Source of the DNA: a virus
DNA length: 64,000 bases
Reading direction: 5' to 3' (one strand)
IMG/VR virus record: IMGVR_UViG_3300043411_001575
Coordinates: 64,001-128,000 of that record
The notes under the pieces were generated by a model that saw only the letters and a program-made list of their open reading frames with translations, searched no databases and was not told where the DNA came from. The position numbers and the translations under genes were made by a program. Position 1 is the first letter of the stretch. Every line of letters starts with the position of its first letter. Shown one piece after another: positions 13,818-51,643 of the stretch.

Positions 13818-14882
13818 ATGTTAATTATTAAAAACAAAAAGATGTTAAAAAACGAAATAACCGAGAATGAGGCATTGAGTATAGCACGTGTTAGTGGCAG
13901 TACTTTTGTGAATGCTGATTGCTTCGATGTTTTTCCTTTTATTGAGGATAAATCAATTGATGCTATTATTTGCGATTTACCTTATGGAACTACTGCTTGT
14001 GCTTGGGATATAATAATACCTTTTGAGAAATTATGGAAAGAATATGATAGAGTTTTAAAAGACAAAGGAAGTATTATTTTGACAGCATCACAACCATTTA
14101 CAAGTATTTTACTTATGAGTAATTTAAAATGGTTTTCTCACGAATGGATTTGGGAAAAAGAAATGGGTAGCAATTTTATGTTAGCAAACAAGCAACCACT
14201 AAAAATACACGAAAGTATATTGGTTTTTAATAGACCAATAAATGAAGTGAAAAATGATTTTGGCAAATACTCGGATATTAGGGATTATTTTCAAGAAGAA
14301 AGAAAAAAAACAAATTTATCGTATAAAGAAATAAACGAAAAATGTTTTGGTAGTGCTTCAAATGGTGGTGGTATGGCTTCAAATATTTTAACGAGTTATA
14401 AGAAAGGTTGGAGTTTTCCAAGTAAAGAAAAATATGAAGCATTGCAAAAAATAGGTATTTGTAAAACTCCTTATAATGAATTGAAAAATGAATATTTAAA
14501 AGCATTTGAGATTGATAGAACATACAACCCTATAAAAACCGATGGTAAACCTTATGTAATTAAACAAGGTGGCGTTTCTGATGTTTACGGAAATAAAGAA
14601 AACAATATCACAACTGAAAATAACGGAGATAGATTTCCAACTTCAATTTTAAAAATCAAACGTGATAAAGAAAAAATACACCCAACAGCTAAACCGCTTG
14701 AACTTATGGAATACCTTGTTAAAACATATACCAACGAGGGCGACACGGTTTTAGATAATACAATGGGTTCAGGTACAACAAACTTAGCCTGTATCAAATT
14801 AAATCGCAAATCAATTGGAATAGAAAAGGAAAAACAATATTACGATGTGGCTGTTCGGAGGGCTTCGGAGTATTGCCACTAA
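13818..14882 (+). CDS. DNA methyltransferase, N6/N4 beta class, with ~100 aa insertion
   Basis: CDLPY, HPTAKP, LDNTMGSGTT; start lies in the hairpin (13818 or 13842). Confidence 0.9.
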   Translation: MLIIKNKKMLKNEITENEALSIARVSGSTFVNADCFDVFPFIEDKSIDAIICDLPYGTTACAWDIIIPFEKLWKEYDRVLKDKGSIILTASQPFTSILLMSNLKWFSHEWIWEKEMGSNFMLANKQPLKIHESILVFNRPINEVKNDFGKYSDIRDYFQEERKKTNLSYKEINEKCFGSASNGGGMASNILTSYKKGWSFPSKEKYEALQKIGICKTPYNELKNEYLKAFEIDRTYNPIKTDGKPYVIKQGGVSDVYGNKENNITTENNGDRFPTSILKIKRDKEKIHPTAKPLELMEYLVKTYTNEGDTVLDNTMGSGTTNLACIKLNRKSIGIEKEKQYYDVAVRRASEYCH

Positions 14883-15073
14883 CGTATGGTGCTATACGAA
14901 GGAGGCGATTATTAGCACTAAAGTTGATGCGGAGTACAAATGTTTGTTTAACCACAAATGTTTCTACGGAGTACCAAACCGCCTCTTTTGTATAGCACGT
15001 GTTACCTGCTGGTGTGGTTTATTTAGCAGGATTTTGATTTGAAAACGAATAGAAAATTTAAAAAGTTTTAGAA

Positions 15074-15319
15074 ATGGGAACACAAAAAATGTATGCAGTA
15101 GAATATAAAACGGATAGTAGTTCTACTTATGAAATATTTGAAAATTATGATGATGCCTTAGCGTTTGCTAATAGTAATGAAAATGCTATGTTTTTATTTA
15201 CGGCAGACTTTAATAAGGATAGAATTTATTTAGATGGCGAAACTTGGAATTATGATGATTTTGCCGACACTTTTATTAACCAAGAAACAATTGAAACTTA
15301 TGAAATATATGGGAAGTAA
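15074..15319 (+). CDS. Cassette hypothetical acidic protein
   Basis: ORF in unit 15001-16095. Confidence 0.6.
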   Translation: MGTQKMYAVEYKTDSSSTYEIFENYDDALAFANSNENAMFLFTADFNKDRIYLDGETWNYDDFADTFINQETIETYEIYGK

Positions 15320-16067
15320 GGCAAGATTTAGTAAAGATATTTTGCCGATAATATTAAAAGATAGAACAGTCGAACAATGGTATGTTGAACCATTTGCAGG
15401 AGGAATGAACGCTATTTGCGAAGTAGGTGGTAATAGACTTGCTAACGATAAAAACTATCACTTAATTGAAATGTGGAAAGGATTAGCAAACGGAATTAAA
15501 TATCCAACGGACATACCAAAAGAATTGTATAACCTTGCAAGAGATGTGTATAATGGCAGAGAAACAAGGTTTGAACATAAAATGAATATGGCTGACGATA
15601 TGGTAGGATGGATTGGTTGGATGGGTTCTGCAAATGGAAGATTTTTTGATGGTGGATATAGTGGGAAATCAAACACAAAAATTGGAACTGTCCGTGATTA
15701 CATTAAGGAAGCAATAAGTAATATTGAAAAGCAATTACCAAAGATGGCAGGTGTTAAATTTGAAAATAAAGATTATACCAAATTGGAAATTCCTAATTGC
15801 AGTATTATTTATTGCGACATTCCATATCAAGGAACAAAACAATATTCAACATCAAAAGATTTTAACCATTCTAATTTTTGGAATTGGTGTAGAGAAAAAG
15901 CAAAGCAAGGACATACGATTTTTGTAAGTGAATACAATGCACCTGATGACTTTGAATGTGTTTGGCAAAAAGAGGCAAAATCTTCTTTATCGGCAAACGG
16001 CAAAATCGGTGGCAATAAGTTGAGCGTGGAAAAACTTTTTAAATTTTCTCCCACAAATGTTCAATAG
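15300..16067 (+). CDS. DNA adenine methylase, D12/Dam-like alpha class
   Basis: MKYMGSK, YVEPFAGG, YCDIPY, FVSEY. Confidence 0.9.
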   Translation: MKYMGSKARFSKDILPIILKDRTVEQWYVEPFAGGMNAICEVGGNRLANDKNYHLIEMWKGLANGIKYPTDIPKELYNLARDVYNGRETRFEHKMNMADDMVGWIGWMGSANGRFFDGGYSGKSNTKIGTVRDYIKEAISNIEKQLPKMAGVKFENKDYTKLEIPNCSIIYCDIPYQGTKQYSTSKDFNHSNFWNWCREKAKQGHTIFVSEYNAPDDFECVWQKEAKSSLSANGKIGGNKLSVEKLFKFSPTNVQ

Positions 16068-16236
16068 TAGCACTATCGTAGCACTTGCAGGTAACAGACA
16101 AGGCTATATTCTCGTGCCGTTTTTCACGGCATGGAATTATAGCCGATGTTATGCAAGTGGGTTGGGTTGTGGGTGGCTCGTTTCAAAACTCTTTTTCTTA
16201 TTTTTTTAGGGAGGGATTTTTTATTTTCTTTTTTAC

Positions 16237-16266
16237 TTGCCAATTGACAATTTATGTTTATCTTTG
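16237..16266 (+). promoter_or_regulatory. Cassette-internal promoter with palindromic operator; copies at 19774, 24834, 29532, 30492, 39123, 46858
   Basis: TTGCCAATTGACAA followed by the -7 element TATCTTTG; perfect palindrome TTGCTAATTAGCAA at 39123-39136. Confidence 0.65.
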
Positions 16267-16308
16267 TAGCAGATAATTTAATACTAACAATTTAAAAACA
16301 AAAACAAA

Positions 16309-16524
16309 ATGAGCAAAATCACAGACTTTTGGGTGGTTACTAAACCAACGAAAAATTCAACATTGGCAGATATTCTGTTTAGTGCAGATATGAAACGAAT
16401 GGAATTGCAGTTCAAAGGAGGATTGACTGGAAAGGAAATTGTTGGAACATTTACCACAAAAGACCAAGCTACAAAGGTTGCTAAAATGGCACTTTTAAAA
16501 GCTGGTGCAAATGTAAAATTTTAA
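16309..16524 (+). CDS. Small cassette protein
   Basis: First ORF after the cassette promoter. Confidence 0.65.
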   Translation: MSKITDFWVVTKPTKNSTLADILFSADMKRMELQFKGGLTGKEIVGTFTTKDQATKVAKMALLKAGANVKF

Positions 16525-16542
16525 CATCTAAAACGAAACAAA

Positions 16543-16734
16543 ATGGGAATTTCAAAAACACTTGACCAAAGCAGAACCATTGTTTACGAAAACAAACTCG
16601 TTACTTGGGTTGATTGGGCATCTAAGGATGTTCACAAAGGAACAATTAAAATAAAAATACTCGGCAGGAAAACTTACATAACTGTTGATTACAACGACTT
16701 GAAAAATGTAAGTGTTACTAAAATTAAAAAATAA
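16543..16734 (+). CDS. Small cassette protein
   Basis: Operon-packed ORF. Confidence 0.6.
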   Translation: MGISKTLDQSRTIVYENKLVTWVDWASKDVHKGTIKIKILGRKTYITVDYNDLKNVSVTKIKK

Positions 16735-16739
16735 AAACT

Positions 16740-16907
16740 ATGGCAACTAAACCTAAAGCACCGTTTCAGGTAGGCGGTTACAAAGTAAAATGGTCTACAT
16801 CAAATAAAACTTGGCAGATTTGGAAAGGCAGTAAATTGATTGACGATTTTACAACTAAAGAAAGTGCAAGAACAAAAGCCGAAAGACTAACAAGAGGCTC
16901 TTACTAA
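16740..16907 (+). CDS. Small cassette protein (55 aa, not in ORF track)
   Basis: MATKPKAPFQVGGYKVKW...RGSY*. Confidence 0.6.
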   Translation: MATKPKAPFQVGGYKVKWSTSNKTWQIWKGSKLIDDFTTKESARTKAERLTRGSY

Positions 16908-16917
16908 AAACAAAACA

Positions 16918-17070
16918 ATGAAACTATCTGTAACAGAATATGCAAAACAGCTTGGTGTAACTCGTCAGGCTGTTTTGTTACAGATTAAAGAAAAAAGGCT
17001 ACCAAAAAATGTTATAGTTGAAAAAATTGGTAATACTTATCTCTTATCTGTGCGTGGGCAAAAAAAATAA
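16918..17070 (+). CDS. Small HTH regulator, family copy 1 of 7
   Basis: MKLSVTEYAKQLGVTRQAVLLQIKEKRLP. Confidence 0.8.
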   Translation: MKLSVTEYAKQLGVTRQAVLLQIKEKRLPKNVIVEKIGNTYLLSVRGQKK

Positions 17071-17161
17071 GAAAAAGAGTTTTGAAATGTTGCATAACGT
17101 TATCTCGCTTGGCGAGGTTTGGGGTTGAAACCCTATAATTTCTAATTTAAAACAAAATATA

Positions 17162-17998
17162 ATGAACACCGATATAAACGAAAATCCCAAATCTTGCCAA
17201 ACGAGTGTTATGGTTAGTGCGGATTTGATTAACAAAATTCATAATGAAAACTGCCTTGAAACAATGGCGAAAATGCCTGATAATTTTATTGATTTAACTG
17301 TTACCTCACCGCCTTATGATGGATTAAGAACGTACAACGGTTATAGTTTTGATTTTGAAAGTGTCGCAAAAGAATTATACCGAGTTACTAAAGAGGGTGG
17401 TGTTGTAGTGTGGGTTGTGGGCGATGCAACAGTAAAAGGCAGTGAAAGTTTAACATCATTTAAACAAGCTATTTATTTCAAAGATATTGGGTTTTCTGTA
17501 GAAACTATGATTTATGAAAAGGCGCAATCTTGCTTTGGTAGTAACACCTATTATTTGCAGGCGTTTGAATATATGTTTGTTTTAACTAAAGGCACTAAAC
17601 CAAAAGCAATTAATCATTTACGTGACCGCAGAAATGAGCGTAGTGGCGTTGAGAGTATGGGAAAAGGAGGCTTAAATAAAAACGGCACTAAAACAGACAG
17701 GCATAAAAAAGAAATGCTCGAATATGGTAAGCGAAAAAATATATGGAAATACGGAGTGGGTGGAGGCAAGACGGGACATCCTGCGGTATTTCCTGAACAG
17801 CTCGCAAACGACCATATAATTTCGTGGAGCAATGAAAACGATATTGTTTACGATTGCTTTAGCGGAAGCGGAACAACTGCTAAAATGAGTATAATTAATA
17901 GCAGGCGATGGATAGCGTCTGAAATGAGTGCTGAATATTGCGATATTATAAAAGAACGTATTAAAGTAGATAAAGGTCTTTTTGAAAACGTATCGTAG
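17162..17998 (+). CDS. DNA methyltransferase, beta class (SPPY, N4-cytosine-like)
   Basis: TSPPY, HPAVFP, YDCFSGSGTT. Confidence 0.9.
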   Translation: MNTDINENPKSCQTSVMVSADLINKIHNENCLETMAKMPDNFIDLTVTSPPYDGLRTYNGYSFDFESVAKELYRVTKEGGVVVWVVGDATVKGSESLTSFKQAIYFKDIGFSVETMIYEKAQSCFGSNTYYLQAFEYMFVLTKGTKPKAINHLRDRRNERSGVESMGKGGLNKNGTKTDRHKKEMLEYGKRKNIWKYGVGGGKTGHPAVFPEQLANDHIISWSNENDIVYDCFSGSGTTAKMSIINSRRWIASEMSAEYCDIIKERIKVDKGLFENVS

Positions 17999-18156
17999 CA
18001 TTAACCATAACGGATGGTGCTATGAGCAGGTTTGCCTTGTAGAAATGTTCAAGTTACCGAAAATGTTATTGGCAAACTTGCTTATAGCACGTGTTATACG
18101 CTGGCACGGTAAATTCAGCAGAAACTTAATTTGAAAAACTAAAAGAAAAAATAAAA

Positions 18157-18735
18157 ATGAGCAAAGGAGATTTTACAACATTAGGAGCATCAGCACACTC
18201 AAAAGAAGAGCGTGAAGAAAATGACTTTTATGCAACAGACCCAAAAGCATTAGAGATATTCCTTGAACAAACAGGGATTGAATTGCGAAACGTATGGGAA
18301 TGTGCTTGTGGAGAAGGGCATTTGGCAAAAGTATTAGATGCAAGAGGATTGCTTGGAAGAGCAAGTGATTTGATTGATAGAGGTTATGGAATAACGGAGA
18401 GTAATTTCTACTACTTTTCTGAAATATGGGAAGGAGATATATTAACAAATCCACCATACGGAGATGCTATGAAATTTTGCCAACACGCTCTTGATTGTGT
18501 GGATGAAGGAAGTAAAGTAGTGATGCTTATGCGTATTCAATTCTTAGAAGGGCAAAGACGTAAACCTTTTCTTTTGAAAAACCCGCCAAAGTATGTTTAT
18601 GTTAGCAGTAGCCGATTGTTACTCGCTAAAAACGCAGACTTTGTAAAGTACAACACACCTTCCGCTAATTGCTATGCGTGGTATGTTTGGGAAAAAGGAT
18701 TTAAAGGCGAAACTACTTTACGTTGGTTTAATTAA
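18157..18735 (+). CDS. Short phage-type N6-adenine DNA methyltransferase
   Basis: DFYAT, WECACGEG, TNPPY. Confidence 0.8.
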   Translation: MSKGDFTTLGASAHSKEEREENDFYATDPKALEIFLEQTGIELRNVWECACGEGHLAKVLDARGLLGRASDLIDRGYGITESNFYYFSEIWEGDILTNPPYGDAMKFCQHALDCVDEGSKVVMLMRIQFLEGQRRKPFLLKNPPKYVYVSSSRLLLAKNADFVKYNTPSANCYAWYVWEKGFKGETTLRWFN

Positions 18736-18877
18736 AAAGTGCGTGGGAAGATTTTTATTTTTTCTCTCACAAATGTTGAATCGAAGAACGAATGTAGTGC
18801 TTGCGTATAACGGCATCGGGCTTTGTGTCCGTTGGCGACTTAACCCACCAATGTTAAATTAAAAAACGAAACTTGAT

Positions 18878-19150
18878 ATGAGTACAAATGATGAATTGAA
18901 AAACGAAACCGCCAATGGCACAAAACCCGTGTTATCGGCTGGTTGGATTTCTGTAAAAGAGCAATTACCTGAATATTGGAGTCAACACCGAAATGATTAT
19001 GGAAGTGGTTACGTTCTTGGTTATACTAAATATGGTGAATGGGAAATAACTCAACTTTGGAATAATAAAGATTGGGAAGGTGATGATGACAATGAAGGTG
19101 ATTATATTACTCATTGGATGCCGTTGACCGTTCCACCAACTTGCCGATAA
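18878..19150 (+). CDS. DUF551-like phage protein
   Basis: WISVKEQLPE ... ITHWMPL. Confidence 0.7.
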   Translation: MSTNDELKNETANGTKPVLSAGWISVKEQLPEYWSQHRNDYGSGYVLGYTKYGEWEITQLWNNKDWEGDDDNEGDYITHWMPLTVPPTCR

Positions 19151-19222
19151 CGTATCGTGGCTTTGTTGTCGTTGTGGCTATTTAAGACCAAACTTAACAA
19201 ATAATAACTAAAAATTAAATTT

Positions 19223-19621
19223 ATGACTGAACTTTCAAAAAATGCCCAAGTGCCACAATGCGACAAAACCGCTGTTAGTGGCTGTGTTTTAGGATTACCT
19301 GAAATTGGAAAAACATATAATTGCTTTGATGATGGGAAAATAAGTAAAAGTAGAATGTATCAAGTTACAATAAGTGAAATAATCCCATTTGAAAAAGCCG
19401 ATAATGAATTGTTAGAATTATGGGAAGAAGAAGGATTACCGAGTTATTGGTTGTTTGAAAAAACAGATTATTTCATAAAATTTAAAAGTACAGAATTTAA
19501 AGACGAACCAAACGGAGTTTTTGCAAGAACTAAAAACGGTGGTTGGTTTGGTTTAGGGAACTATTGGAATAGTGGTAGATTAGATGTTGACGGCTCTTTA
19601 ACGCAAAGCTTGTCAACATAG
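19223..19621 (+). CDS. Cassette hypothetical protein
   Basis: Starts in the hairpin loop and fills unit 19274-19629. Confidence 0.65.
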   Translation: MTELSKNAQVPQCDKTAVSGCVLGLPEIGKTYNCFDDGKISKSRMYQVTISEIIPFEKADNELLELWEEEGLPSYWLFEKTDYFIKFKSTEFKDEPNGVFARTKNGGWFGLGNYWNSGRLDVDGSLTQSLST

Positions 19622-19850
19622 CCACTAACGGCATCCGTATAAGGGAAGTGCGAGGAACGAGCATTTACTTTATACGGTGTTAGCAAAGTGCGTTGGGCTG
19701 TGTGTTGGCTCGTTCCAAAACCATTTATTTTCTTTTTTTTGGGGAGGTTTTGAAAACTTTTTTACTAAAATACTTGCTAAATGACAATTTATATTTATCT
19801 TTGAACCATATTAACAATTAAAAAATAAAAACAATTAAAAAATAAAAACA

Positions 19851-20036
19851 ATGACAAAATTCGGAACAACAACTTGCCAATTTTACAACGGAACAGATTC
19901 AGTAACCGTAAATTCATCACTATTCAGAACCATTAGAGGTTGGGCTTCTACTGGTATTCCAAAAGATGCTATTAAAGGGGGAAGAAAGGTTTACGTTGCT
20001 AAAACAACTCTTGAACGCATTAAAAAAATTGCTTAA
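19851..20036 (+). CDS. Small cassette protein
   Basis: Lies between promoter and HTH gene. Confidence 0.6.
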   Translation: MTKFGTTTCQFYNGTDSVTVNSSLFRTIRGWASTGIPKDAIKGGRKVYVAKTTLERIKKIA

Positions 20037-20221
20037 TGAGAATTTCTGTAACTGATTATGCAAAACAGCTTGGTGTAACTCGTCAAGCTGTTTTGTTACA
20101 GATTAAAGAAAAAAGGTTGCCTAATAATGTTAAGTCTGAAAAAATTGGCAACACTTACTCTTTAACTGTGGGTGGGCAAAAAAAGAATAAAAATGCTTCC
20201 AATAAACTACAATCGAAGTAG
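20036..20221 (+). CDS. Small HTH regulator, copy 2
   Basis: SVTDYAKQLGVTRQAVLLQIKEKRLP. Confidence 0.8.
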   Translation: MRISVTDYAKQLGVTRQAVLLQIKEKRLPNNVKSEKIGNTYSLTVGGQKKNKNASNKLQSK

Positions 20222-20313
20222 TATCGTAGCAATGGGGCATAACGGTTTCGGGCTTGGCGAAGTGGCTGAACTCGAAGCTAAATAGGATTACTAAACTTTA
20301 AAATTAAAAACGA

Positions 20314-21135
20314 ATGTTAGATAGAATTACTGAACAGCCATTTTGCCAAACCCGTGTTATGTGCAGGGCGGTTGATAATCTTGAACTCCTTTTGTCGCAG
20401 CCTGATGAAAGTGTAGATTTGATTTATTGCGATATACTTTACGGAACAGGTAGAAATTTCAGTGAATATCAGGACTTGAAACCAATTAGAAGTGAGATTG
20501 AAAGCCACTACCTACCACGTTTTATCGAAATGAAACGAGTCTTAAAACAAAGCGGCACTATATACATTCATACGGGAGTAAACACTTCCCATTGGATTAG
20601 AAGTTTAATGGATGATGTTTTTGGGTATAATAATTTTCAAAATGAAATTATATGGTACTACAAAAATTCCGCATTGAAAGCTAAGTCAAATAAATTTAGG
20701 CAGAATACAGATACTATACTTTACTATGTAAAAGAAAAGGGTAAACATATTTGGAATGATGTTTACGAAAAGTGTAAACCTTATAAAAACTCAAAGCATA
20801 AATTTAATCCAATAACAAAAAAAGCTGAAAGGCAGAGAAATGAAAGTGGTAGAATTGAATACTTTATGGTAGATGAAAGGAAGTGCGATAACCTAATTCA
20901 GATAAATGCTTTAAATAGTAGTGAAAAGGTTGGTTACCCTACTCAAAAACCAAAGGAACTAATAAGCCGTTTTGTTTTAGCTTCTACGAATGAAGGGGAT
21001 GTAGTGGCTGATTATTATTTAGGTAGTGGCACAACCGCAGTAGTTTGTAAAGAACTAAACCGAAATTTTATAGGTTGCGACATTAATCCAAAGGCTATTG
21101 AAATAACAAATGCTCGTTTAGATGCAGTTTCGTAG
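20314..21135 (+). CDS. DNA methyltransferase, beta class, atypical DILY motif IV
   Basis: CDILY, NEIIWYY, YPTQKP, DYYLGSGTT. Confidence 0.85.
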   Translation: MLDRITEQPFCQTRVMCRAVDNLELLLSQPDESVDLIYCDILYGTGRNFSEYQDLKPIRSEIESHYLPRFIEMKRVLKQSGTIYIHTGVNTSHWIRSLMDDVFGYNNFQNEIIWYYKNSALKAKSNKFRQNTDTILYYVKEKGKHIWNDVYEKCKPYKNSKHKFNPITKKAERQRNESGRIEYFMVDERKCDNLIQINALNSSEKVGYPTQKPKELISRFVLASTNEGDVVADYYLGSGTTAVVCKELNRNFIGCDINPKAIEITNARLDAVS

Positions 21136-21412
21136 CCTTGCGCATAACGGTCGAGTATTGGCGAAGAAGCGGATTTATACCACCAAAGCCGATACGAAGC
21201 ACTACACTTGATTGACCTACAAATGTTCATACGAAGCACCGAAACCGCTTTTTTGCCAATACTTTGTTAGTGGCTGATGCGGATTTTTAGCACTCATTTT
21301 TAGTCAGTTAGAAAATATTTTGAAAATAGTTGAAAATAAATTTGGTTTGTATTGTTTTTGTATATACATTTGCATTACAATAATTAAGTAAAACAATTTA
21401 AAAACAAACAAA

Positions 21413-21820: not shown

Positions 21821-21822
21821 TT

Positions 21823-22038: not shown

Positions 22039-22039
22039 T

Positions 22040-25188: not shown

Positions 25189-25189
25189 A

Positions 25190-42424: not shown

Positions 42425-42485
42425 CGTTTTGCAGATAGGCGTTGTTGCCTCACAAATGATTGATTGAAACACTAAATTTAATAAT

Positions 42486-43716: not shown

Positions 43717-43910
43717 TGCTTGTACATAACGTTTTCGGGCTTGGCGAAGGTGGGCTTGTAGGATGCTCAATTTTAGCACAATGTGTCTGCCCACTTTTGC
43801 CAAACCCGTGTTATATGAAGTGCCGACTTATTAAGCAGAATTTTAAATTGAAACTATAAACAGAAAAACAAAAAAGAAAAAAAGCGTAGGGAATTTTAAA
43901 AACAAACAAT

Positions 43911-44177
43911 ATGGAAAAGAATTTTATTGAAAAAGCAGAAAAAGAAATTGGTAGAAAATTTGGTTTTTTCATCAGATGTGATGATAAAAACAAACCAACA
44001 GAAGTATTAACCGATATGTACTTTGAACTATGGGAAACAGAAAAGATGAACGAGATTTTATCTTTATGCGAAACACATAATCTTAAATACGATTTTGGTT
44101 TAGAAAGTTTTGATACCAAAATAGATGCTATTGAACAAGAAATATGTATTGTTTCAACTAATTGCGAAAATTCATAA
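43911..44177 (+). CDS. Cassette hypothetical protein
   Basis: Operon with the downstream MTase. Confidence 0.6.
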   Translation: MEKNFIEKAEKEIGRKFGFFIRCDDKNKPTEVLTDMYFELWETEKMNEILSLCETHNLKYDFGLESFDTKIDAIEQEICIVSTNCENS

Positions 44178-44178
44178 A

Positions 44179-44922
44179 ATGGAAGCAAATACGATTTACA
44201 AAGGCGATTGCTTTGAACTTATAAAGCAAATAACAAAAGCAGATAACGTCAAACTTATTATTACAGACCCACCATATTTACATAATAAAGGAGGTGGGAA
44301 AACATCGGGAACAGAGGGTAAAAGTTCAATAGCTAATAGCCCTATGTATAAATTCGATTCATTTATGATGGAAGATATGAGTTCTTTTTTAGAGGAAGAT
44401 GTTTATAATCTATTAGATGAATATAAAAGAATAATGACAAAATTAAACTGCTTTATATTTACTAATGACACTTTGATACCGTATTATACAATGTGGGCAG
44501 TTAAAAACAATAAAAAGTTTACAATTTTAACTTGGGAAAAACCATTGTCGATTTTAAACAGAAATAGATTTAGTCAGAATTTAGAATATGTTGTGAGGAT
44601 TTACGACAATGGAACTGCACTTAATTTAATAGATTTAGAAGCATATCCCGAAAAGAAAAACTACTACTCAAAAAACAGAAGGTTAAATTCGCCTACAAAT
44701 AAGATACACCCAACCCAAAAACCATTAGAATATCTACTTGGATTGATTGAGTTAAATACAAATGAAGGCGATTTAGTATTAGATACGTTTTTTGGTAGTG
44801 GACAAACAGGTAAGGCTTGTCAGATTTTAAATAGAAATTATATCGGTTTTGAAAGAGAAGAAAAGTATGTTGAATTATCAAATAAATATTTACAACAAGG
44901 ATTTGAAAAAACACTATTTTAA
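44179..44922 (+). CDS. DNA methyltransferase, beta class (DPPY)
   Basis: TDPPY, HPTQKP, LDTFFGSG. Confidence 0.9.
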   Translation: MEANTIYKGDCFELIKQITKADNVKLIITDPPYLHNKGGGKTSGTEGKSSIANSPMYKFDSFMMEDMSSFLEEDVYNLLDEYKRIMTKLNCFIFTNDTLIPYYTMWAVKNNKKFTILTWEKPLSILNRNRFSQNLEYVVRIYDNGTALNLIDLEAYPEKKNYYSKNRRLNSPTNKIHPTQKPLEYLLGLIELNTNEGDLVLDTFFGSGQTGKACQILNRNYIGFEREEKYVELSNKYLQQGFEKTLF

Positions 44923-45071
44923 AAGTGTGGTGGCTTTTTTCTTTTTGTTTTTCATTAACGGAACTTCAATTGGAAACGGTCAGCAAGGCATTTCATATAA
45001 CGTTCGAGGGCTTGGCGAAGTGGCTGAACCTGAAGCTAAATAGAATTACTAAACTTAAAAATTAAGAACGA

Positions 45072-45881
45072 ATGATTGATATAATTACTGAACAGCCATT
45101 TTGCCAAACCCGTGTTAGTGGCAGTACTTTTGTGAATGCTGATTGCTTTGATGTTTTTCCTTTTATCGAGGATAAATCAATTGATGCTATTATTTGCGAT
45201 TTGCCCTATGGAACAACTCAATGTAAATGGGATAGCATTATTAATTTAGATTTGATGTGGACGCAATACAACAGAATAATAAAAGATAACGGCATTTTTA
45301 TATTATTTGCAGATGAGCCTTTTACAAGCATATTAATAAATAGTAACATTAAAAATTTTAAGCAAAGAATAACTTGGGATAAACAAATAGCAGGAGGTCA
45401 TTTAAACGCTAAAAAAATGCTATTGAAAAGAACTGAGGATATATGCTTATTTTCAAATGTTAAAAATGGAAAATATACATACAATCCTATTTTAAAAGAT
45501 AAGGATTTTAAAAACATAAGAGATAGAAACGGAGAAAACAGAAAAGAGTTTAAAGGCGGTTATGTAGGGAAACACAATAGTACGTTGAGTAAAGAGCATA
45601 ACAATAAAAAAAGTTACCCAGATAATTTAATTTCCTTTTCAGCAAGAAAAGGCGATTGTAACCCTATAAATAGATTACACCCAACACAAAAACCACTTGA
45701 ATTGATGGAATATCTTATAAAAACCTATACTAATGAGGGCGATTTGGTTTTAGATAACACAATGGGTTCTGGAACAACAATTTTAGCTGCTATAAAAAAT
45801 AATAGAATTGGTATAGGAATTGAAAAGGAAAAACAATATTATGATGTCGCTGTTCGTAGGGCTTCGGAGTATTGCCACTAA
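45072..45881 (+). CDS. DNA methyltransferase, beta class
   Basis: CDLPY, HPTQKP, LDNTMGSGTT. Confidence 0.9.
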   Translation: MIDIITEQPFCQTRVSGSTFVNADCFDVFPFIEDKSIDAIICDLPYGTTQCKWDSIINLDLMWTQYNRIIKDNGIFILFADEPFTSILINSNIKNFKQRITWDKQIAGGHLNAKKMLLKRTEDICLFSNVKNGKYTYNPILKDKDFKNIRDRNGENRKEFKGGYVGKHNSTLSKEHNNKKSYPDNLISFSARKGDCNPINRLHPTQKPLELMEYLIKTYTNEGDLVLDNTMGSGTTILAAIKNNRIGIGIEKEKQYYDVAVRRASEYCH

Positions 45882-45952
45882 CGTTATCGGGCTTGGCGAA
45901 GTGGCTGAACCCGAAGCTAAATAGAATTACTAAACTTAAAAATTAAAAACGA

Positions 45953-46711
45953 ATGTCAAATAGAATTACAGAACAGCCATTTTGCCAAACCAGTGTTAGT
46001 GGCAGTACTTTTGTAAATGCTGATTGCTTTGATGTTTTTCCTTTTATTGAGGACAAATCAATTGATGCTATTATTTGCGATTTGCCTTATGGAACTACTG
46101 CTTGTAAGTGGGATACAATTATACCATTTGAGCCGCTATGGGAGCAGTACAAGCGAGTGATTAAACCTAATGGTGCGATAGTGCTGTTTAGCAAAGAGCC
46201 ATTTACGTGCATATTGAGAACAAGTGAAATTAAAATTTTTAAGCAACCTCTTATTTGGGATAAGGTTAATTCAGATAACCCTATGCAGGCAAAAAGAAGA
46301 CATCTAAACACTACGGAGGATATTTCTATCTTTTACAAATCTCAATGTACTTATAACCCACAAGGTCTTATAAAGTCAAATATAAAAAAGGGAGGGAAGC
46401 AAGGGATAATGATTGATAGTAGTGGTAAGGAAAAAGAACAATATATTCAAGAGAATACCAATTATCCGAAAAATATATTAGTGTACCCGATAGAAAGAAA
46501 GGCGGTTCATCCAACTCAAAAACCCGAAGCACTCCTGCAATACTTAGTCAAAACCTACACTAACGAAGGCGATATAGTCTTAGATAACTGTATGGGTTCA
46601 GGTACAACAAATCTTGCTTGTTTAAAATTAAATCGCAAATCAATTGGAATAGAAAAGGAAAAACAATATTACGATGTCGCTGTTCGTAGGGCTTCTGAGT
46701 ATTGCCACTAA
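45953..46711 (+). CDS. DNA methyltransferase, beta class
   Basis: CDLPY, HPTQKP, LDNCMGSGTT. Confidence 0.9.
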   Translation: MSNRITEQPFCQTSVSGSTFVNADCFDVFPFIEDKSIDAIICDLPYGTTACKWDTIIPFEPLWEQYKRVIKPNGAIVLFSKEPFTCILRTSEIKIFKQPLIWDKVNSDNPMQAKRRHLNTTEDISIFYKSQCTYNPQGLIKSNIKKGGKQGIMIDSSGKEKEQYIQENTNYPKNILVYPIERKAVHPTQKPEALLQYLVKTYTNEGDIVLDNCMGSGTTNLACLKLNRKSIGIEKEKQYYDVAVRRASEYCH

Positions 46712-46918
46712 CGGTATCCGTATAAGGGAAGTGCGAGGAACGAGCATTTACTTTATACGGTGTTAGCAAAGTGCGTTGGGATTGTGTGTCGGCTCGTTCC
46801 AAAACCATTTATTTTCTTTTTTTTGGGGAGGTTTTGAAAACTTTTTTACTAAAATACTTGCTAAATGACAATTTATATTTATCTTTGAACCATATTAATA
46901 ATCTAAAAACAAAACAAA

Positions 46919-47230
46919 ATGATTTACAAAAAAACACACTATGATAAAAAGGCTTTAAACAGCCACGTTTCAAAAATAAAAGATGCAGGAGGAAATGCAA
47001 TAGTAGATGGATTATCGGTTAGATATTTCTATCCATCCAATACCATTGGTGAAATTAGATTAAAGCATAAGAGTTGGAAGAAAACAGAAAGACAAGAAGT
47101 TTTGTTTATTGTTTTAGTTTCTGAAAAAGATAAAACGCCATACTATTCAGCAATGTATTTCCCGAAATGGGTTGAAATAGGAGGTGTTTATGGAAACAAA
47201 AATGACATAACAATAATCGAAAAGTTTTAA
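46919..47230 (+). CDS. Small cassette protein
   Basis: Lies between promoter and HTH gene. Confidence 0.65.
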   Translation: MIYKKTHYDKKALNSHVSKIKDAGGNAIVDGLSVRYFYPSNTIGEIRLKHKSWKKTERQEVLFIVLVSEKDKTPYYSAMYFPKWVEIGGVYGNKNDITIIEKF

Positions 47231-47232
47231 CT

Positions 47233-47388
47233 ATGAAACTGTCTGTAACAGAATATGCAAAACAGCTTGGCGTAACTCGTCAAGCCGTTTTGTTACAAAT
47301 TAAAGAAAAAAGGTTGCCTAAAAATGTGAAGGTTGAAAAAATCGGAAATACTTATTCTTTAACTGTGGGTGGGCAAAAAAGAAAATAA
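47233..47388 (+). CDS. Small HTH regulator, copy 7
   Basis: MKLSVTEYAKQLGVTRQAVLLQIKEKRLP. Confidence 0.8.
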   Translation: MKLSVTEYAKQLGVTRQAVLLQIKEKRLPKNVKVEKIGNTYSLTVGGQKRK

Positions 47389-47533
47389 ATGGTTTTGGAA
47401 TGTTTGCTAACGTATGGTGCTATGAGCAGGTTTGCCTTGCAGAAATGTTCAAATTTAGCACTAATGTTATTGGCAAACTTGCTTATAGCACGTGTTAGCG
47501 GTAGTTTATTTTTCAAAAATTAAAATTAAAAAT

Positions 47534-47992
47534 ATGGGAACACAAGTAGTAGGAGAAAGTAACAGCGTTGAGTATAGCACTCCGTTGAAAATAGTACAGC
47601 CATTGATAAACGAATTTGGCTTAACAAGAGATGTTTGTGCAAGTGAATTAAACCACAAACTACCCGATTATTGGACAAAAGAAGATAATTCACTTGCTAT
47701 GAATTGGAAAGGTAATTGTTGGATGAACCCACCATTTAGCAGAGATTTGAATAAGTGGGTAAAGAAAGCGTGTAATGATGCTGAAAGGTTTGGAGGAACG
47801 AAAGTTTGTTTAATACCTGTAAGAAGCAATACAAAATGGTGGGCGGAAGTTTGTGTAAAAGCAGAAATTCGTTTTATCAATGGCGAAGTAAATTTTAATG
47901 ATGAAGAACGTGGACTTTGGTTGCCGATGTGTATTATCATTTTCGGTGAGAAGGCAAAGGTTGGCACGTTCTCTGTCTTAAATTACCGCTAA
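47534..47992 (+). CDS. Phage DNA N6-adenine methyltransferase (small phage Dam family)
   Basis: YSTP, DVCAS, WMNPPF, LIPVRSNTKWW. Confidence 0.85.
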   Translation: MGTQVVGESNSVEYSTPLKIVQPLINEFGLTRDVCASELNHKLPDYWTKEDNSLAMNWKGNCWMNPPFSRDLNKWVKKACNDAERFGGTKVCLIPVRSNTKWWAEVCVKAEIRFINGEVNFNDEERGLWLPMCIIIFGEKAKVGTFSVLNYR

Positions 47993-48120
47993 CGTTTTGC
48001 AGCTAACAGAAGGCGGCTTTTTAGCAAACTTAGTACTTGCCGCTTTTTGTTAGCTGCTGTTAGTGGACTGTTAAATTATTAAAAAAGAAAAAAGGAGGGG
48101 TGCGAGGGCATCTAAACATA

Positions 48121-48957
48121 ATGGACAAGAAGAAACTTTTAATTGCTTTTAGTGGTGGAGAAACATCTGCATTTATGGCTCAATGGTTATGGAAACATAA
48201 ACAAGGTGAATACGAAATGTTATTTGCTTTTGCTAATACTGGGGTTGAGAATGAAGAAACTTTAAACTTTGTGCATAAATGCGAAGTTGAATTTGGTATA
48301 AATGTTAATTGGTTGGAAGCAGTAATAGACCAAGAGAAAGGGAAAGGCACAAGGCATAAGATTGTTGATTACAAAACAGCAAGTAGAAACGGACAACCAT
48401 TTGAGGAACTGATAAAGAAATACGGTTTACCAAACCAACAGCGATTTCACTGCACAAGGGAGTTAAAAAATAATACATTGATTTCATTTGCAAAAAGTAT
48501 TTGGGGAAAGGAAAAGTATTATTTAGCAATAGGAATTAGAGTAGATGAATTTGATAGGATGAATGATAAATTTAAAGAGTTGAGAATTGTTTATCCGTTA
48601 ATTTCAGAAATTCCAATGACAAAGCCAAAGATTAATTTTTGGTGGAAACAACAACCGTTTAGATTAGAATTAAAAGGTTATCAAGGGAATTGTGTTACTT
48701 GCTACAAAAAAAGTGATAAAAAATTGTTTCAGATAGCTAAAGAAAATCCAAGTGCATTTGATTTCTTTGATAGAATGGAAGAACAATATGGAGAAGGTAA
48801 GTATCAATTTTTTAGGCAGAACCGAACAGCTAAACAAATTATGGAACAAGCTAAAGAATGGAATGGCAATGTAACCGATGACGCACAAAATGTTACAATA
48901 CAAACAGATTTATTTAGCGAAAGTTGTGAAGCATTTACAAGCGATTGCGGTGTTTAA
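48121..48957 (+). CDS. PAPS reductase-like (PP-loop) protein
   Basis: FSGGETS, FANTG.E, CTRELK, GIRVDE, GNCVTC. Confidence 0.8.
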   Translation: MDKKKLLIAFSGGETSAFMAQWLWKHKQGEYEMLFAFANTGVENEETLNFVHKCEVEFGINVNWLEAVIDQEKGKGTRHKIVDYKTASRNGQPFEELIKKYGLPNQQRFHCTRELKNNTLISFAKSIWGKEKYYLAIGIRVDEFDRMNDKFKELRIVYPLISEIPMTKPKINFWWKQQPFRLELKGYQGNCVTCYKKSDKKLFQIAKENPSAFDFFDRMEEQYGEGKYQFFRQNRTAKQIMEQAKEWNGNVTDDAQNVTIQTDLFSESCEAFTSDCGV

Positions 48958-49088
48958 CCTTTTCACAGTTTTGAAAAAACTGAAAGAGTGCGTGGGCTTT
49001 TTCTTTTTTAATAATTTAATTGCCACTAACGGTTCGCAGGTATATTTAGTTGCGGACTTAGTAACACAAAACTTTAAATTTAGAAGAA

Positions 49089-49445
49089 ATGAAGAAAGAA
49101 GAACAAAACTCGAATGAACCACAAAAACCGCAATTGAATATACCTGCTGTTAGTTGCAGTGTTGTTCATTGCAAGAAAGCACCTTATGATGTTTATATTG
49201 GAAGACCAAGCAAATGGGGTAATCCATTCACACACATAAAAGACGGTAAAACACTTGCAAAACATATTGTAGGTAGTAGAGATGAAGCAGTCGAAGCATA
49301 TCTTGAATGGATTACCAACGGAGAAGGTAAACATTTGATGAGTGATTTACACGAATTGAAAGATAAGGTGCTTGGTTGTTGGTGTCATCCACAATCTTGT
49401 CACGGAGATGTACTTTCGGAGTTGGTTGCTAAACATTGCAACTAA
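49089..49445 (+). CDS. DUF4326-like protein
   Basis: VYIGRPSKWGNPF, LGCWCHPQSCHGDVL. Confidence 0.8.
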   Translation: MKKEEQNSNEPQKPQLNIPAVSCSVVHCKKAPYDVYIGRPSKWGNPFTHIKDGKTLAKHIVGSRDEAVEAYLEWITNGEGKHLMSDLHELKDKVLGCWCHPQSCHGDVLSELVAKHCN

Positions 49446-49488
49446 CGTTTTGCAGGTATATTTAGTGCCGAATTTAAAAACGAAAAAT

Positions 49489-49791
49489 ATGAATTTTATA
49501 CAAAAGTTATTTAAAAGCAGAAAGGTTAATGAACCGATGAACTCGGCATTGAATATACCTGTTGTTATACCTCGTTTATCTTCTGATTGGATAAAATTTG
49601 AGGATGAAAAACCACCACACGAAGTAGTATTAGCTGCTTGCGATACTTATGATTGTGGATGGACTATGGATACTGTTTGGTGGTATGAAGATAAGCAATG
49701 TTGGATGGTTACTGGTGCAGTTAAAAGTACAGAAGCACATTTACCATACACACATTGGCGTAAATTACCACCATTTCCAAATGAGGTATAA
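49489..49791 (+). CDS. DUF551-like phage protein
   Basis: WIKFEDEKPP ... THWRKLP; ATG in the hairpin loop. Confidence 0.65.
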   Translation: MNFIQKLFKSRKVNEPMNSALNIPVVIPRLSSDWIKFEDEKPPHEVVLAACDTYDCGWTMDTVWWYEDKQCWMVTGAVKSTEAHLPYTHWRKLPPFPNEV

Positions 49792-49978
49792 CGTATTGGT
49801 GCTATACGAAGGAGGCGATTATTAGCACTAAATTTGATGCGGAGTACAAATGTTTGTTTAACCACAAATGTTTCTGCGGAGTACCAAACCGCCTCTTTTG
49901 TATAGCACGTGTTATACGCTGGCACGGTTGATTAAACGAGAAACTTAAATTGAAACACAAAACAAAATTTTTATTAAA

Positions 49979-50764
49979 ATGAGCGAGGGCAAAAAAGAAA
50001 TATTATTAGGAGATTGTTTGGAACTTATGAAGGATATACCAAACGGAAGTATTGATATGATACTTTGTGATTTACCATACGGAACAACTGCTTGTAAATG
50101 GGATAGTGTAATACCTTTTGAACCACTTTGGAAAGAATATGAAAGGATTATAAAGACCAATGGTGCTATTTTATTGTTTGGAACACAACCATTCACAACA
50201 GAACTAATATTGAGCAATAGAAAATTGTTTAAGTATGATATGGTTTGGTGCAAAGACAAACCTGCTGACTTCGGAAATGGCAATATAAAACCATTAAGAT
50301 ACCACGAAACAATTTGTGTATTTTATACCAAAACGCCAACATACAATAAGCAATTTGAAAGCAGAAAAGGAACTGGCTATTCAAGGGCTAAATATCCTGT
50401 AAATTACATAAACAATTCAGAGCATAAATTTGGAATGAAAGATGGTTCTTTTGATTATGCAAATAAAGACAGAATGATTGGAACTGTAATAGATATTACA
50501 ACTGGTGCAAGAGGTAGCATAAAACACCCAACAGTAAAGCCCGTTCCTTTATTTGAACATTTAATCAAAACATATACCAACGAAGGTGAATTGGTTTTAG
50601 ATAATACAGCAGGAAGCGGAACAACTGCAATTGCTTGTTTGAATACTAAAAGGCAATTTATAGTAATGGAAAAAGAACAAAAGTATTACGATATGATTTT
50701 AAAAAGGGTGGGAGATTTTAATAAAAATTTTGAACCGCAAACTCTCTTTGGAAACGAAATGTAG
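49979..50764 (+). CDS. DNA methyltransferase, beta class
   Basis: CDLPY, HPTVKP, LDNTAGSGTT. Confidence 0.9.
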   Translation: MSEGKKEILLGDCLELMKDIPNGSIDMILCDLPYGTTACKWDSVIPFEPLWKEYERIIKTNGAILLFGTQPFTTELILSNRKLFKYDMVWCKDKPADFGNGNIKPLRYHETICVFYTKTPTYNKQFESRKGTGYSRAKYPVNYINNSEHKFGMKDGSFDYANKDRMIGTVIDITTGARGSIKHPTVKPVPLFEHLIKTYTNEGELVLDNTAGSGTTAIACLNTKRQFIVMEKEQKYYDMILKRVGDFNKNFEPQTLFGNEM

Positions 50765-50848
50765 TGCTTGCGTATAACGGTATCGGGCTTGGCGAAGTGG
50801 CTGAACCGAATGTTTGATAGAAGCACAAAACTTAATAATTAAAAACGA

Positions 50849-51643
50849 ATGATTGATAGAATTACTGAACAGCCATTTTGCCAAACCCGTGTTATGTGCA
50901 GGGCGGTTGATAACCTTGAACTCCTTTTGTCGCAACCTGATGAAAGTGTAGATTTGATTTACTGTGATATTCTTTATGGAACGGGTAGGAATTTCGGTGA
51001 TTACCAAGACTTAAAACCAATTAGAAGCGAAATAGAAAGCCACTACCTACCAAGACTTATTGAAATGAAACGAGTTTTAAAAAGTACAGGTAGTATTTAT
51101 TTGCAAATGGATACACGAATAAACCATTGGATGCGCATTTTGATGGATGATGTTTTTGGGTATGAAAATTTCCGCAATGAAATAGTATTTGGATATAATG
51201 GGGGTGGTGTTTCAAAGAATTGTTATCCTAAAAAACACGACATAATCTTGTTTTATTCTGTTAGTGATAAATACTATTTTAATAACGAAAAGAAACCATA
51301 CTCCGCTTTAAGTTCACAAAACTTATTGTGGAAACATAGGAATAAAAAAAGACTTGATGAACTTAATGATGGCACACCTGTAACCGATGTATGGACTGAT
51401 TTGAAGTTTAAAATAAATTACCAAGAGGAAGAATATACAGGATATGCTACCCAAAAAACAAAAGAATTATTGAGCCGTATTGTTTTAGCTTCCACAAATG
51501 AAGGCGATACAGTTGCAGATTATTATTTAGGTAGTGGCACAACGGCAGTAGTTTGTAAGGAACTGAACCGAAATTTTATAGGTTGCGATATTAATCCAAA
51601 AGCTATTGAAATAACAAATGCTCGTTTAGATGCACTTTCGTAG
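50849..51643 (+). CDS. DNA methyltransferase, beta class, atypical DILY motif IV
   Basis: CDILY, YATQK, DYYLGSGTT; paralog of 20314. Confidence 0.85.
   Translation: MIDRITEQPFCQTRVMCRAVDNLELLLSQPDESVDLIYCDILYGTGRNFGDYQDLKPIRSEIESHYLPRLIEMKRVLKSTGSIYLQMDTRINHWMRILMDDVFGYENFRNEIVFGYNGGGVSKNCYPKKHDIILFYSVSDKYYFNNEKKPYSALSSQNLLWKHRNKKRLDELNDGTPVTDVWTDLKFKINYQEEEYTGYATQKTKELLSRIVLASTNEGDTVADYYLGSGTTAVVCKELNRNFIGCDINPKAIEITNARLDALS

Follow-up and report, generated by a model that had tools for sequence, protein, structure and literature searches.

An integron-like cassette array with 21 DNA methyltransferase genes in a freshwater Bacteroidota phage, probably an exchangeable anti-restriction library

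We analyzed a stretch of 64,000 nucleotides (nt), hereafter the window, which spans positions 64001-128000 of the IMG/VR record IMGVR_UViG_3300043411_001575, a single linear contig of 169,658 bp with a CheckV completeness of 82%. The record is a 170-kb freshwater Bacteroidota phage; it contains Bacteroidota-type promoters, a tail fiber gene, HNH genes and RtcB, and the metagenomes containing the stretch come from freshwater, groundwater, sediment and wastewater in several studies. The window harbors 46 gene cassettes, 21 of which encode a DNA methyltransferase (MTase), in an array that ends next to a gene for a tyrosine recombinase. We propose, with a probability of roughly 65%, that these MTases are the cargo of a phage-borne, integron-like cassette platform and constitute an anti-restriction library that is exchangeable among Bacteroidota phages. 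The proposal draws on gene identities, site structure and covariation, the complementarity of cassette ends, the layout of the platform, the presence or absence of cassettes and the avoidance of palindromes, all of which were observed directly.

From these observations we infer recombinase activity, a crossover point, the activity and specificities of the MTases and protection from restriction, as follows. The Xer-like recombinase would insert and excise cassettes, with strand exchange, by analogy with integrons, between TAA and C (TAA/C) on the folded + strand. Each cassette starts with a folded attC-like site, often with a start codon in its loop, and ends in xxxTAA, which often provides the stop codon. 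The array geometry is the mirror image of a classical integron, with the open reading frames (ORFs) running towards the recombinase. Expression would originate from about 13 cassettes with their own Bacteroidota-type promoter, and the MTases, putatively solitary N6-methyladenine (m6A) or N4-methylcytosine (m4C) enzymes of different specificities, would methylate the DNA of progeny phages, which could then survive restriction-modification (R-M) systems whose targets remain in the genome.

The sites were identified with a covariance model, R1, built from an alignment of 32 hairpins and applied with a threshold of E<1e-3. Across the whole 170-kb genome, this model detected 46 sites, all on the + strand and all within 13774-50897, with none in the remaining 130 kb. 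The array and its sites are as follows.

13774..51656, + strand: integron-like array of 46 cassettes, delimited with R1
Sites 1-12, + strand: 13774, 14877, 16089, 17092, 18005, 18805, 19145, 19623, 20237, 21142, 22220, 22775
Sites 13-24, + strand: 24317, 24684, 25834, 26882, 28358, 29365, 30114, 30912, 31924, 32864, 33425, 33735
Sites 25-36, + strand: 34410, 35303, 36316, 37317, 38092, 38934, 39623, 39947, 40622, 41566, 42419, 42822
Sites 37-46, + strand: 43724, 44995, 45876, 46706, 47405, 47987, 49024, 49440, 49786, 50772

All hairpins share one design: xxxTAAC and four to five unpaired bases lead into a stem arm of about 20 bp, which a loop of 15-90 nt separates from the returning arm, and a single base then links the latter to GTTAyyy. 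They measure 57-136 nt, some being more than 90% identical to each other, and delimit cassettes of about 310-1540 nt. In the consensus fold of the 32 aligned hairpins, 15 of 21 pairs show compensatory changes, and no variation occurs in the TAAC/GTTA cores or at a single G.T pair. The sites score 30-82 bits on the + strand vs 11-27 bits on the - strand at identical loci. No Rfam family corresponds to these hairpins, the sole match in the window being a permuted transfer-messenger RNA (tmRNA).

The cassette ends obey a rule that spans the genes. In 38 of 45 neighboring pairs (permutation mean 4.5, maximum 13 in 20,000 trials), the 7-mer at the end of a hairpin is reverse-complementary to that at the beginning of the next, and 7-mers are complementary within a single hairpin at only 6 of the 46 sites. 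Since the complementarity holds between neighboring hairpins, each gene lies between inverted termini of its own, like an integron cassette. These termini extend to 14-15 bp as an imperfect inverted repeat with a fixed G/T wobble position. The 46 sites, with their invariant TAAC/GTTA cores and covarying stems, agree with the attC pattern of imperfect inverted repeats with RYYYAAC/GTTRRRY cores, and the outer boxes are complementary within the cassette in 38 of 45 cases. Two identical hairpins with the reversed core order (GTTATGC...GCATAAC), at 28300-28357 and 29300-29371, coincide with breaks in the cassette-end rule; they may be scars left by an inversion or by site-site recombination.

Several features fit a cassette in which the hairpin belongs to the downstream gene (C/hairpin-GTTA..ORF..TAA/, the slash marking the cassette boundary), with the full formula C/G-N4-5, inner stem of about 20 bp, loop, inner stem, N1, GTTAyyy..ORF..xxxTAA/. 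When near-identical hairpins of the window and of 116 related loci are paired, the right (downstream) flank alone is shared in 127 pairs and the left flank alone in one. For nine MTase ORFs, the only possible start lies in the loop of the hairpin before them, and the hairpin 3' arm encodes the conserved MTase N-terminus MxDRITEQPFCQTRV. The stop codon of at least six MTase ORFs is the TAA of the following core; MTase 1 (13818..14882) combines both features, with its start codon in the hairpin loop and its stop in the next core. Moreover, the array opens on the left with a complete hairpin and closes at the recombinase with a bare half-site. The classical model, with a crossover at G/TTA and the hairpin owned by the upstream ORF, was rejected in view of the flank-linkage counts (127 vs 1), the hairpin-less half-site at the recombinase end together with the complete hairpin at the far end, and the cassettes inserted in related phages, which carry the hairpin at their 5' end.

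The array terminates at a junction that resembles the attI region of integrons.

51650-51656, + strand: terminal half-site ACATAAC, without hairpin, followed by a 46-nt attI-like spacer to the recombinase ATG at 51703
51676..52572, + strand: Xer-like tyrosine recombinase (longest ORF, probable start 51703; PF00589, 149 bits)

Profile and template comparisons indicate that the recombinase is of the Xer type and lacks the IntI-specific insertion. It scores 206 bits against NF040815 (XerA, 'tyrosine recombinase/integron integrase'), below the cut-off of 220, and 155 bits against TIGR02249 (IntI), the latter match being split into two stretches. In the alignment with VchIntIA (2A3V), 26 of its residues (178-204) face 69 chain residues (179-248), and the extra domain of about 35-45 amino acids (aa) near patch III that marks the IntI clade is missing. 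The best match in the PDB is Pyrococcus XerA (4A8E), aligned over residues 10-268 with the RVSEL, HxLRHSFATH and GHSN..TTQIY blocks conserved, and the protein has the Phage_integrase catalytic residues (R..HxxR..H/W..Y) and the length of about 270-300 aa expected of an Xer-type enzyme. A half-site, a spacer of about 45 nt and a recombinase gene follow each other in the window and in seven related loci (L008, L103, L030, L011, L105, L129 and L127), whose recombinases are 33-79% identical to that of the window. The closest of them (79%) lies in L008, a contig that ends 95 nt 5' of the gene and in which R1 finds no site.

Related DNA provides natural variants of the array. The motif TAACG, followed by five unspecified bases and GGGCTTGGCGAAG, occurs in more than 116 IMG/VR contigs, and R1 detects 361 sites in about 120 loci, with a maximum of 14 per record. 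Whole cassettes distinguish the members of two pairs of near-identical phages: the difference between L095 and L079 (about 95% identical) is one cassette of 1063 nt, and that between L093 and L069 (98-99% identical) is an insert of 1604 nt with two cassettes, both encoding methyltransferases. Both inserts are placed exactly at ...TAAC/hairpin...xxxTAAC/TAC..., with the same sequence downstream, and cassette insertions in relatives are located at the comparable end of the array. Two other candidate indels, L033/L069 and L045/L077, turned out to be ordinary insertions without sites. In other phages, MTase homologues account for 63 of 246 ORFs (at least 100 aa) inside arrays vs 21 of 943 outside; because the bait hairpin was linked to one MTase group, the count was repeated after non-bait hairpins, and MTases still made up 17 of 77 ORFs. 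The sequence-only reading of this window had called the arsenal reshuffleable, and this part of its proposal is well supported by discrete cassettes bounded by attC-like sites beside a tyrosine recombinase and by the whole MTase cassettes by which near-identical relatives differ at TAAC.

A member of the same site family resides in a bacterial chromosome. Locus L127 (1410-10828), from Flavobacterium sp. GCA_046293665.1 (452-kb contig JBKBOL010000002.1), has eight sites and a recombinase 48% identical to that of the window; its recombinase-proximal cassette of 4.2 kb carries genes for a SulP-type and an NhaA-type transporter and obeys the inverted-termini rule. This chromosomal occurrence could be taken to mean that the recombinase is a prophage or dimer-resolution enzyme unrelated to the array, the hairpins being transcription terminators, RNA-processing or translational elements and the array having grown by tandem duplication and homologous recombination, with no site-specific mobility of cassettes. 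Along the same lines, the G.T pairs of the coding strand would be G.U in RNA, start codons often lie in loops, and the ends of paralogous MTase genes, 80-94% identical at the DNA level between cassettes and between phages around centers that do not align, could recombine homologously. We regard this explanation as very improbable, since it leaves unexplained the gene-spanning complementarity between successive hairpins (38 of 45), the TAAC-bounded insertion of whole cassettes in near-identical phages and the conserved half-site before the recombinase in eight loci.

The 21 MTases announced by the sequence-only reading, one per cassette, were all recovered, as each of the listed starts falls in an intact + strand ORF with homology to DNA methyltransferases by Pfam, PADLOC or PHROGs, and each of the 21 cassettes concerned (of 46) has a single such ORF. 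Five of the starts (15300, 33849, 35496, 44179 and 47534) are internal ATG codons, with the frame unchanged.

13818..14882, + strand: MTase 1, beta class group A (DLPY, large central insert); PF01555, 108 bits
15234..16067, + strand: MTase 2, D12 (Dam-like), DIPY, likely start 15300; PF02086, 50.6 bits
17162..17998, + strand: MTase 3, beta class group B (SPPY); PF01555, 126 bits
18157..18735, + strand: MTase 4, phrog_799 type (NPPY); phrog_799 'DNA methyltransferase', 185 bits; PF05869, 20 bits, below cut-off
20314..21135, + strand: MTase 5, beta class group C (DILY); PF01555, 158 bits
22852..23619, + strand: MTase 6, group A; PF01555, 119 bits
25997..26809, + strand: MTase 7, beta class singleton (SPPY), nearest solved structure CcrM; PF01555, 159 bits
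32085..32840, + strand: MTase 8, beta class singleton (SPNY); PF01555, 134.5 bits
33822..34403, + strand: MTase 9, MT-A70 (DPAW), likely start 33849; PF05063, 100 bits
35433..36308, + strand: MTase 10, group B (SPPY); PF01555, 143 bits
36490..37308, + strand: MTase 11, group B (SPPY), nearest structures N4-cytosine MTases and M.MboIIA; PF01555, 138 bits
38169..38939, + strand: MTase 12, group A, nearest structures DpnA and M.MboIIA; PF01555, 119 bits
40751..41545, + strand: MTase 13, type II gamma-like (NPPF); no Pfam match; PADLOC MTase_II, 70 bits; phrog_799/phrog_5172
41621..42424, + strand: MTase 14, group A; PF01555, 117.5 bits
42976..43716, + strand: MTase 15, beta class singleton (DPPY); PF01555, 109 bits
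44125..44922, + strand: MTase 16, beta class singleton (DPPY), likely start 44179; PF01555, 106 bits
45072..45881, + strand: MTase 17, group A; PF01555, 111 bits
45953..46711, + strand: MTase 18, group A; PF01555, 114 bits
47492..47992, + strand: MTase 19, small phage Dam family (NPPF); PF05869, 80 bits
49979..50764, + strand: MTase 20, group A, divergent; PF01555, 91 bits
50849..51643, + strand: MTase 21, group C, in the recombinase-adjacent cassette; PF01555, 150 bits

Five families are represented: 16 N6_N4_Mtase (PF01555, 91-159 bits, all above the Pfam gathering score of 26.7), one D12, one MT-A70, two of the phage Dam/phrog_799 type and one type II gamma-like enzyme. A six-frame search of the whole 169,658-bp genome placed all 16 PF01555 matches inside the array and revealed no C5 methyltransferase. 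In these 16 ORFs, motif IV is N-terminal and the GxG motif binding S-adenosylmethionine (SAM) is C-terminal, and the nearest solved structures across the MTases searched against the PDB were M.MboIIA, DpnA, CcrM, M.RsrI and N4-cytosine enzymes.

The MTases form three paralogue groups and nine singletons, with a maximum pairwise identity of 67%. Their divergence is concentrated in the center of the proteins, as exemplified by two groups.

Group A, seven members: 54% identity in the N-terminal catalytic part, 15% in the center, 66% in the C-terminal SAM-binding part
Group C, two members: 71% identity in the N-terminal catalytic part, 13% in the center, 86% in the C-terminal SAM-binding part

In beta-class MTases, target recognition resides between motif IV and motif I. 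Because it is this region that diverges between paralogues, the 21 enzymes likely differ in specificity. The different MTase types described by the sequence-only reading, together with different specificities, are supported indirectly, by the presence of five families, identities of at most 67% and paralogue centers only 13-15% identical. All 21 ORFs retain a motif IV-like tetrapeptide. The canonical form, (D/S/N)PP(Y/F/W), is found in six of the 16 PF01555 ORFs (SPPY or DPPY), the others having DLPY (seven), DILY (two) or SPNY (one), and these variants are also kept in homologues of other phages. Likewise, the catalytic and SAM-binding blocks of the array MTases are shared with homologues in many other phages.

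The composition of the genome provides further evidence regarding the function of the library. The whole 170-kb genome contains no GATC (about 413 expected), CCGG (81), GGCC (94) or CGCG (57); no other 4-mer is missing, and all four are palindromic. The only further absent 5-mers are CCWGG and GGWCC. Among six-base palindromes 31 of 64 are absent, 14 of them (e.g., GATATC, TCTAGA, CTGCAG) for reasons other than the missing 4-mers, and CCAGA/TCTGG is 13-fold depleted genome-wide. GANTC, TCGA, AGCT, CATG and GTAC are still common, and related phage loci are not uniformly purged of the absent palindromes. Because six short palindromes are wholly missing, the restriction pressure on this phage is, judging from its composition, severe, and the phage therefore removes many sites and may mask others by methylation. 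The anti-restriction role assigned to the MTases by the sequence-only reading can be strongly inferred from this total absence of six restriction-type palindromes. The host-range expansion and the programmable methylome that it also put forward would be hypothetical further roles.

MTases could also be the modification halves of phage R-M or self-marking systems whose nucleases, hidden in small ORFs, attack the DNA of the host or of rival phages. About 25 cassette ORFs of 40-150 aa match no known family and would offer room for such enzymes, and about a quarter of chlorovirus MTases have adjacent nucleases (PMC7019647). Nonetheless, searches of the 30 further cassette ORFs with Pfam, PADLOC and PHROGs revealed no endonuclease family, in agreement with the earlier statement that no recognizable endonuclease is present. 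In most MTase cassettes (582-1542 nt), the MTase ORF takes up nearly the whole length and leaves no space for a partner gene. A weak PD-(D/E)XK_1 match (E 0.015) occurs in the ORF at 48100-48957, but it sits within a PAPS (phosphoadenosine phosphosulfate)-reductase domain, and the largest ORF without a family is kinase-like. Consequently, hidden nuclease partners seem highly unlikely to account for the library, and restriction enzymes are likely, although not proven, to be absent from the array, with about 25 small ORFs remaining without a family and restriction enzymes being difficult to identify from sequence.

48100..48957, + strand: PAPS-reductase/DndC/SspD-like (PF01507, 27 bits; PADLOC SspD, 46 bits; phrog_424, 148 bits), possibly another DNA-modification enzyme
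27060..27896, + strand: largest non-MTase cassette ORF, predicted protein-kinase-like fold (AlphaFold2 predicted local distance difference test, pLDDT, 83.8; phrog_18305 'kinase')

The fold of the second ORF was predicted from 36 homologues, and the top Foldseek matches of the model in the PDB are all protein kinases or aminoglycoside phosphotransferases (APH), with low template-modeling (TM) scores of about 0.3; the modeled fold is protein-kinase-like, not that of a nuclease. Dozens of metagenomic proteins with unrelated C-terminal domains, some carrying PF18760, PF13151 or PF07603, have N-termini 70-80% identical to the first approximately 65 aa of this protein, and this segment resembles a targeting or packaging module common to variable effectors. 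Matches of the other cassette ORFs include DUF551, DUF4326, PHROG 'phosphoheptose isomerase' and small helix-turn-helix (HTH) proteins, and two family-less ORFs fell only in 'viral hypothetical' clusters of a protein-language-model atlas.

Seven cassettes follow a common design. A short hairpin comes first; a strong promoter of the Bacteroidota type lies about 150 nt from the start of the site, and it is followed by between one and three small ORFs, which vary, and by a conserved HTH ORF of 50 aa.

16089..17091, + strand: promoter (Bacteroidota-type), small ORFs and HTH (50-aa ORF), with short hairpin
19623..20236, + strand: promoter, small ORF and HTH
24684..25833, + strand: promoter, small ORFs and HTH
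29365..30113, + strand: promoter, small ORF and HTH
30114..30911, + strand: promoter, small ORF and HTH
38934..39622, + strand: promoter, small ORF and HTH
46706..47404, + strand: promoter, small ORF and HTH

The HTH protein is 82-90% identical between the seven copies, and a profile of the seven ORFs had no significant match in the PDB (best E 0.5). As a mere impression, the ORF resembles excisionase/AlpA-type or Aca-type regulators, and, equally as an impression, these cassettes may be regulator or anti-defense operons. Together with about six others, they bring the cassettes with a Bacteroidota-type promoter to about 13 of 46. Most MTase cassettes have none, and the promoter-bearing cassettes could drive the promoterless MTase cassettes downstream.

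This scarcity of promoters is also what would be expected if the platform were real and its MTase cassettes mostly silent or selfish passengers, i.e. a 'biobank' that persists by hitch-hiking and exchange and provides no 21-fold anti-restriction shield; at any moment, only the few cassettes close to promoters would count. Most cassettes of classical chromosomal integrons are silent. Besides, twelve of the enzymes have non-canonical catalytic tetrapeptides, and runs X2 and X4 contain cassette unitigs at roughly half the depth of other cassette unitigs. On the other hand, none of the 21 ORFs is disrupted and their catalytic and SAM-binding blocks are conserved, the genes are co-directional, which makes read-through from periodic promoters plausible, and restriction sites are purged inside the cassettes too, which argues for long residence under selection. 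We therefore consider a mostly silent library unlikely, albeit deserving of attention.

A different concern is that the number of MTases was inflated by mis-assembly across hairpins, which would have merged the cassettes of co-occurring phage variants. The record is a linear contig with a CheckV completeness of 82%, its hairpins measure 57-136 nt and are in part more than 90% identical to one another, and public unitigs break at every hairpin. These depth data come from public runs, all four of which consist of short unitigs broken at hairpins. In the best-matching run, X1, eight unique cassette unitigs have depths of 46-62, compared with 43 for the 11-kb backbone unitig that spans from 51629 through the recombinase gene into the backbone, and X2 gives a similar picture. 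Because these depths are similar, the cassettes likely reside together in one genome, even though the unitigs break at hairpins. Moreover, the cassette-end rules apply within each single cassette and are obeyed throughout, and all cassettes share the absence of GATC, CCGG, GGCC and CGCG, unlike many related phages, so that an inflated count appears scarcely credible. Unitig 'joints' (e.g., 45884>49797) were discarded as evidence of excision, as their sides are shorter than 31 nt and repeated MTase ends and hairpins explain them; the window's own junction at 14882 is an example of such a repeat. In runs X2 and X11, the recombinase unitigs start at 51653, exactly at the junction, a mere hint of variation there.

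Several points weigh against the proposal of an exchangeable anti-restriction library. The complementarity of neighboring 7-mers is broken in 8 of the 45 pairs (7 by triplet count), and six cassettes have no long inverted termini. The recombinase lacks the IntI insertion that binds extrahelical attC bases, it could be an ordinary Xer or prophage integrase merely sited there, and the available sequence of several related arrays (L069, L093, L079 and L095) includes no recombinase. Metagenome assembly had to cross repeats of 57-136 nt, and the order of the cassettes, less likely their number, may be wrong. Activity of the enzymes is not assured for 12 of the 21, because their motif IV tetrapeptides are non-canonical (seven DLPY, two DILY, one DIPY, one SPNY and one DPAW), and many cassettes may be silent. 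Finally, a heavily methylated phage would be vulnerable to methylation-dependent (type IV) restriction.

Among known systems, the classical and sedentary chromosomal integrons, such as the Vibrio cholerae superintegron, show the closest likeness. They share with the phage array a tyrosine recombinase gene beside the insertion site (a candidate one in the phage) and a long one-directional array of small, single-gene and mostly promoterless cassettes. Read on the folding strand, the platform geometry, with the 5' end of the recombinase gene facing the array, is also the same, as in a classical integron viewed from its recombining (bottom) strand but with flipped ORFs. Their sites are likewise imperfect hairpins, homogeneous within a lineage, with AAC/GTT cores, an unpaired spacer, a variable loop and outer 7-bp boxes complementary only within the cassette. 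In contrast, the phage recombinase is nearest to XerA and lacks the IntI insertion, and the phage ORFs lie on the putative recombining strand and point to the recombinase, so that no Pc promoter can serve them: instead of ORFs running away from attI under a common Pc, all ORFs face the recombinase and promoters lie inside about 13 cassettes. The phage sites also differ in start codons often placed in the loop and in an outer stem of 14-15 bp with a fixed G.T, and the host of the platform is a phage. Xer-dependent modules, namely the pdif modules of Acinetobacter plasmids and IMEX, are small gene modules moved by Xer-type recombinases without the IntI domain. They rely on 28-bp double-stranded dif-like sites and on the host XerC/XerD, whereas the phage array uses strand-specific hairpins of 57-136 nt and an element-encoded recombinase.

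Solitary MTases are familiar in phages, T4 and P1 Dam being examples. Such enzymes are free-standing amino-methyltransferases that have no nuclease partner and presumably methylate progeny DNA in advance; in known phages they occur as one to few scattered genes per genome, in contrast to the 21 assembled here in a dedicated recombination platform. The use of orphan phage MTases against restriction has been described by Murphy et al. (2013), as cited in PMC9892861. In number, the nearest viral parallel is the chlorovirus NY-2A, with a very large set of 18 predicted MTases, many of them orphan (PMC7019647). NY-2A differs in being a eukaryotic algal virus and in the lack of cassette or recombinase organization; its enzymes include 5-methylcytosine (m5C) MTases besides those for m6A, and nucleases adjoin about a quarter of them.

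The nearest precedent for the sites is found in a virulent Bacteroidota phage. Clusters of attC sites without an integrase (CALINs) have been reported in phages, including attC-like sites that flank two DNA methyltransferase genes in the Polaribacter phage P12002L (Qi et al., 2023; PMC9892861). That locus, with two predicted sites, two MTases and no recombinase, was interpreted as bacterial integron debris (PMC9892861), whereas the present phage has 46 sites, 21 MTases and a non-IntI recombinase with an attI-like junction. P12002L_attC1 belongs to the R1 site family (R1 match at L126, 30005-30059), and it was the only phage site without a verified IntI1 product in the published assay (PMC9892861), a result that fits a different cognate recombinase. 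The present analysis also provides evidence that the site system is native to these phages and widespread among them. We are somewhat inclined to believe that Bacteroidota phages own a native, integron-analogous gene-capture system independent of IntI, based on a minimal Xer-like recombinase and strand-specific hairpins and loaded with counter-defense cargo, above all MTases; the phage analyzed here, with 46 cassettes, 21 MTases and complete purging of many restriction sites, would be its extreme case. In full-text searches of the literature, neither a large phage array served by a non-IntI recombinase nor a comparable MTase library came to light. The platform is integron-like, with a different recombinase, inverted gene orientation and a phage as carrier, and its number of MTases is on an unprecedented scale.

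If the proposal of an exchangeable library is true, phages assemble and trade anti-restriction genes by site-specific cassette capture, beyond slow mosaic recombination, which would offer a concrete mechanism for rapid host-range shifts. The array would also mirror, on the viral side, the bacterial chromosomal integrons in which anti-phage defense systems are banked, a recently recognized role. Additionally, attC-type recombination of a folded strand would need no IntI-specific domain, which bears on the origin of integrons from Xer recombinases. From an applied perspective, the array represents a panel of 21 compact, predicted m6A/m4C methyltransferases with swapped central domains that can serve specificity discovery, the recombinase and its sites are a possible new tool for cassette insertion, and the absence of sites alongside an MTase library makes an unusually clear case for studying how a phage splits its defense between site loss and site masking.

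Regarding the regions that flank the array, window positions 1-13800 gave zero megablast matches in phage and plasmid collections. On the 5' side, ORFs at 3231-4307 (+) and 9609-10484 (+) correspond to an excisionase-family DNA-binding domain ORF with weak sigma-70-like regions and to a ParB-like protein, and 5450-6202 encodes a DnaQ-like exonuclease. The permuted tmRNA lies at 807-961 (-) and matches Rfam RF04321 with 51.9 bits (gathering score 47). On the 3' side, 61757-62926 (+) encodes a full-length RNA-guided endonuclease of the TnpB family (NF040570, 301 bits).

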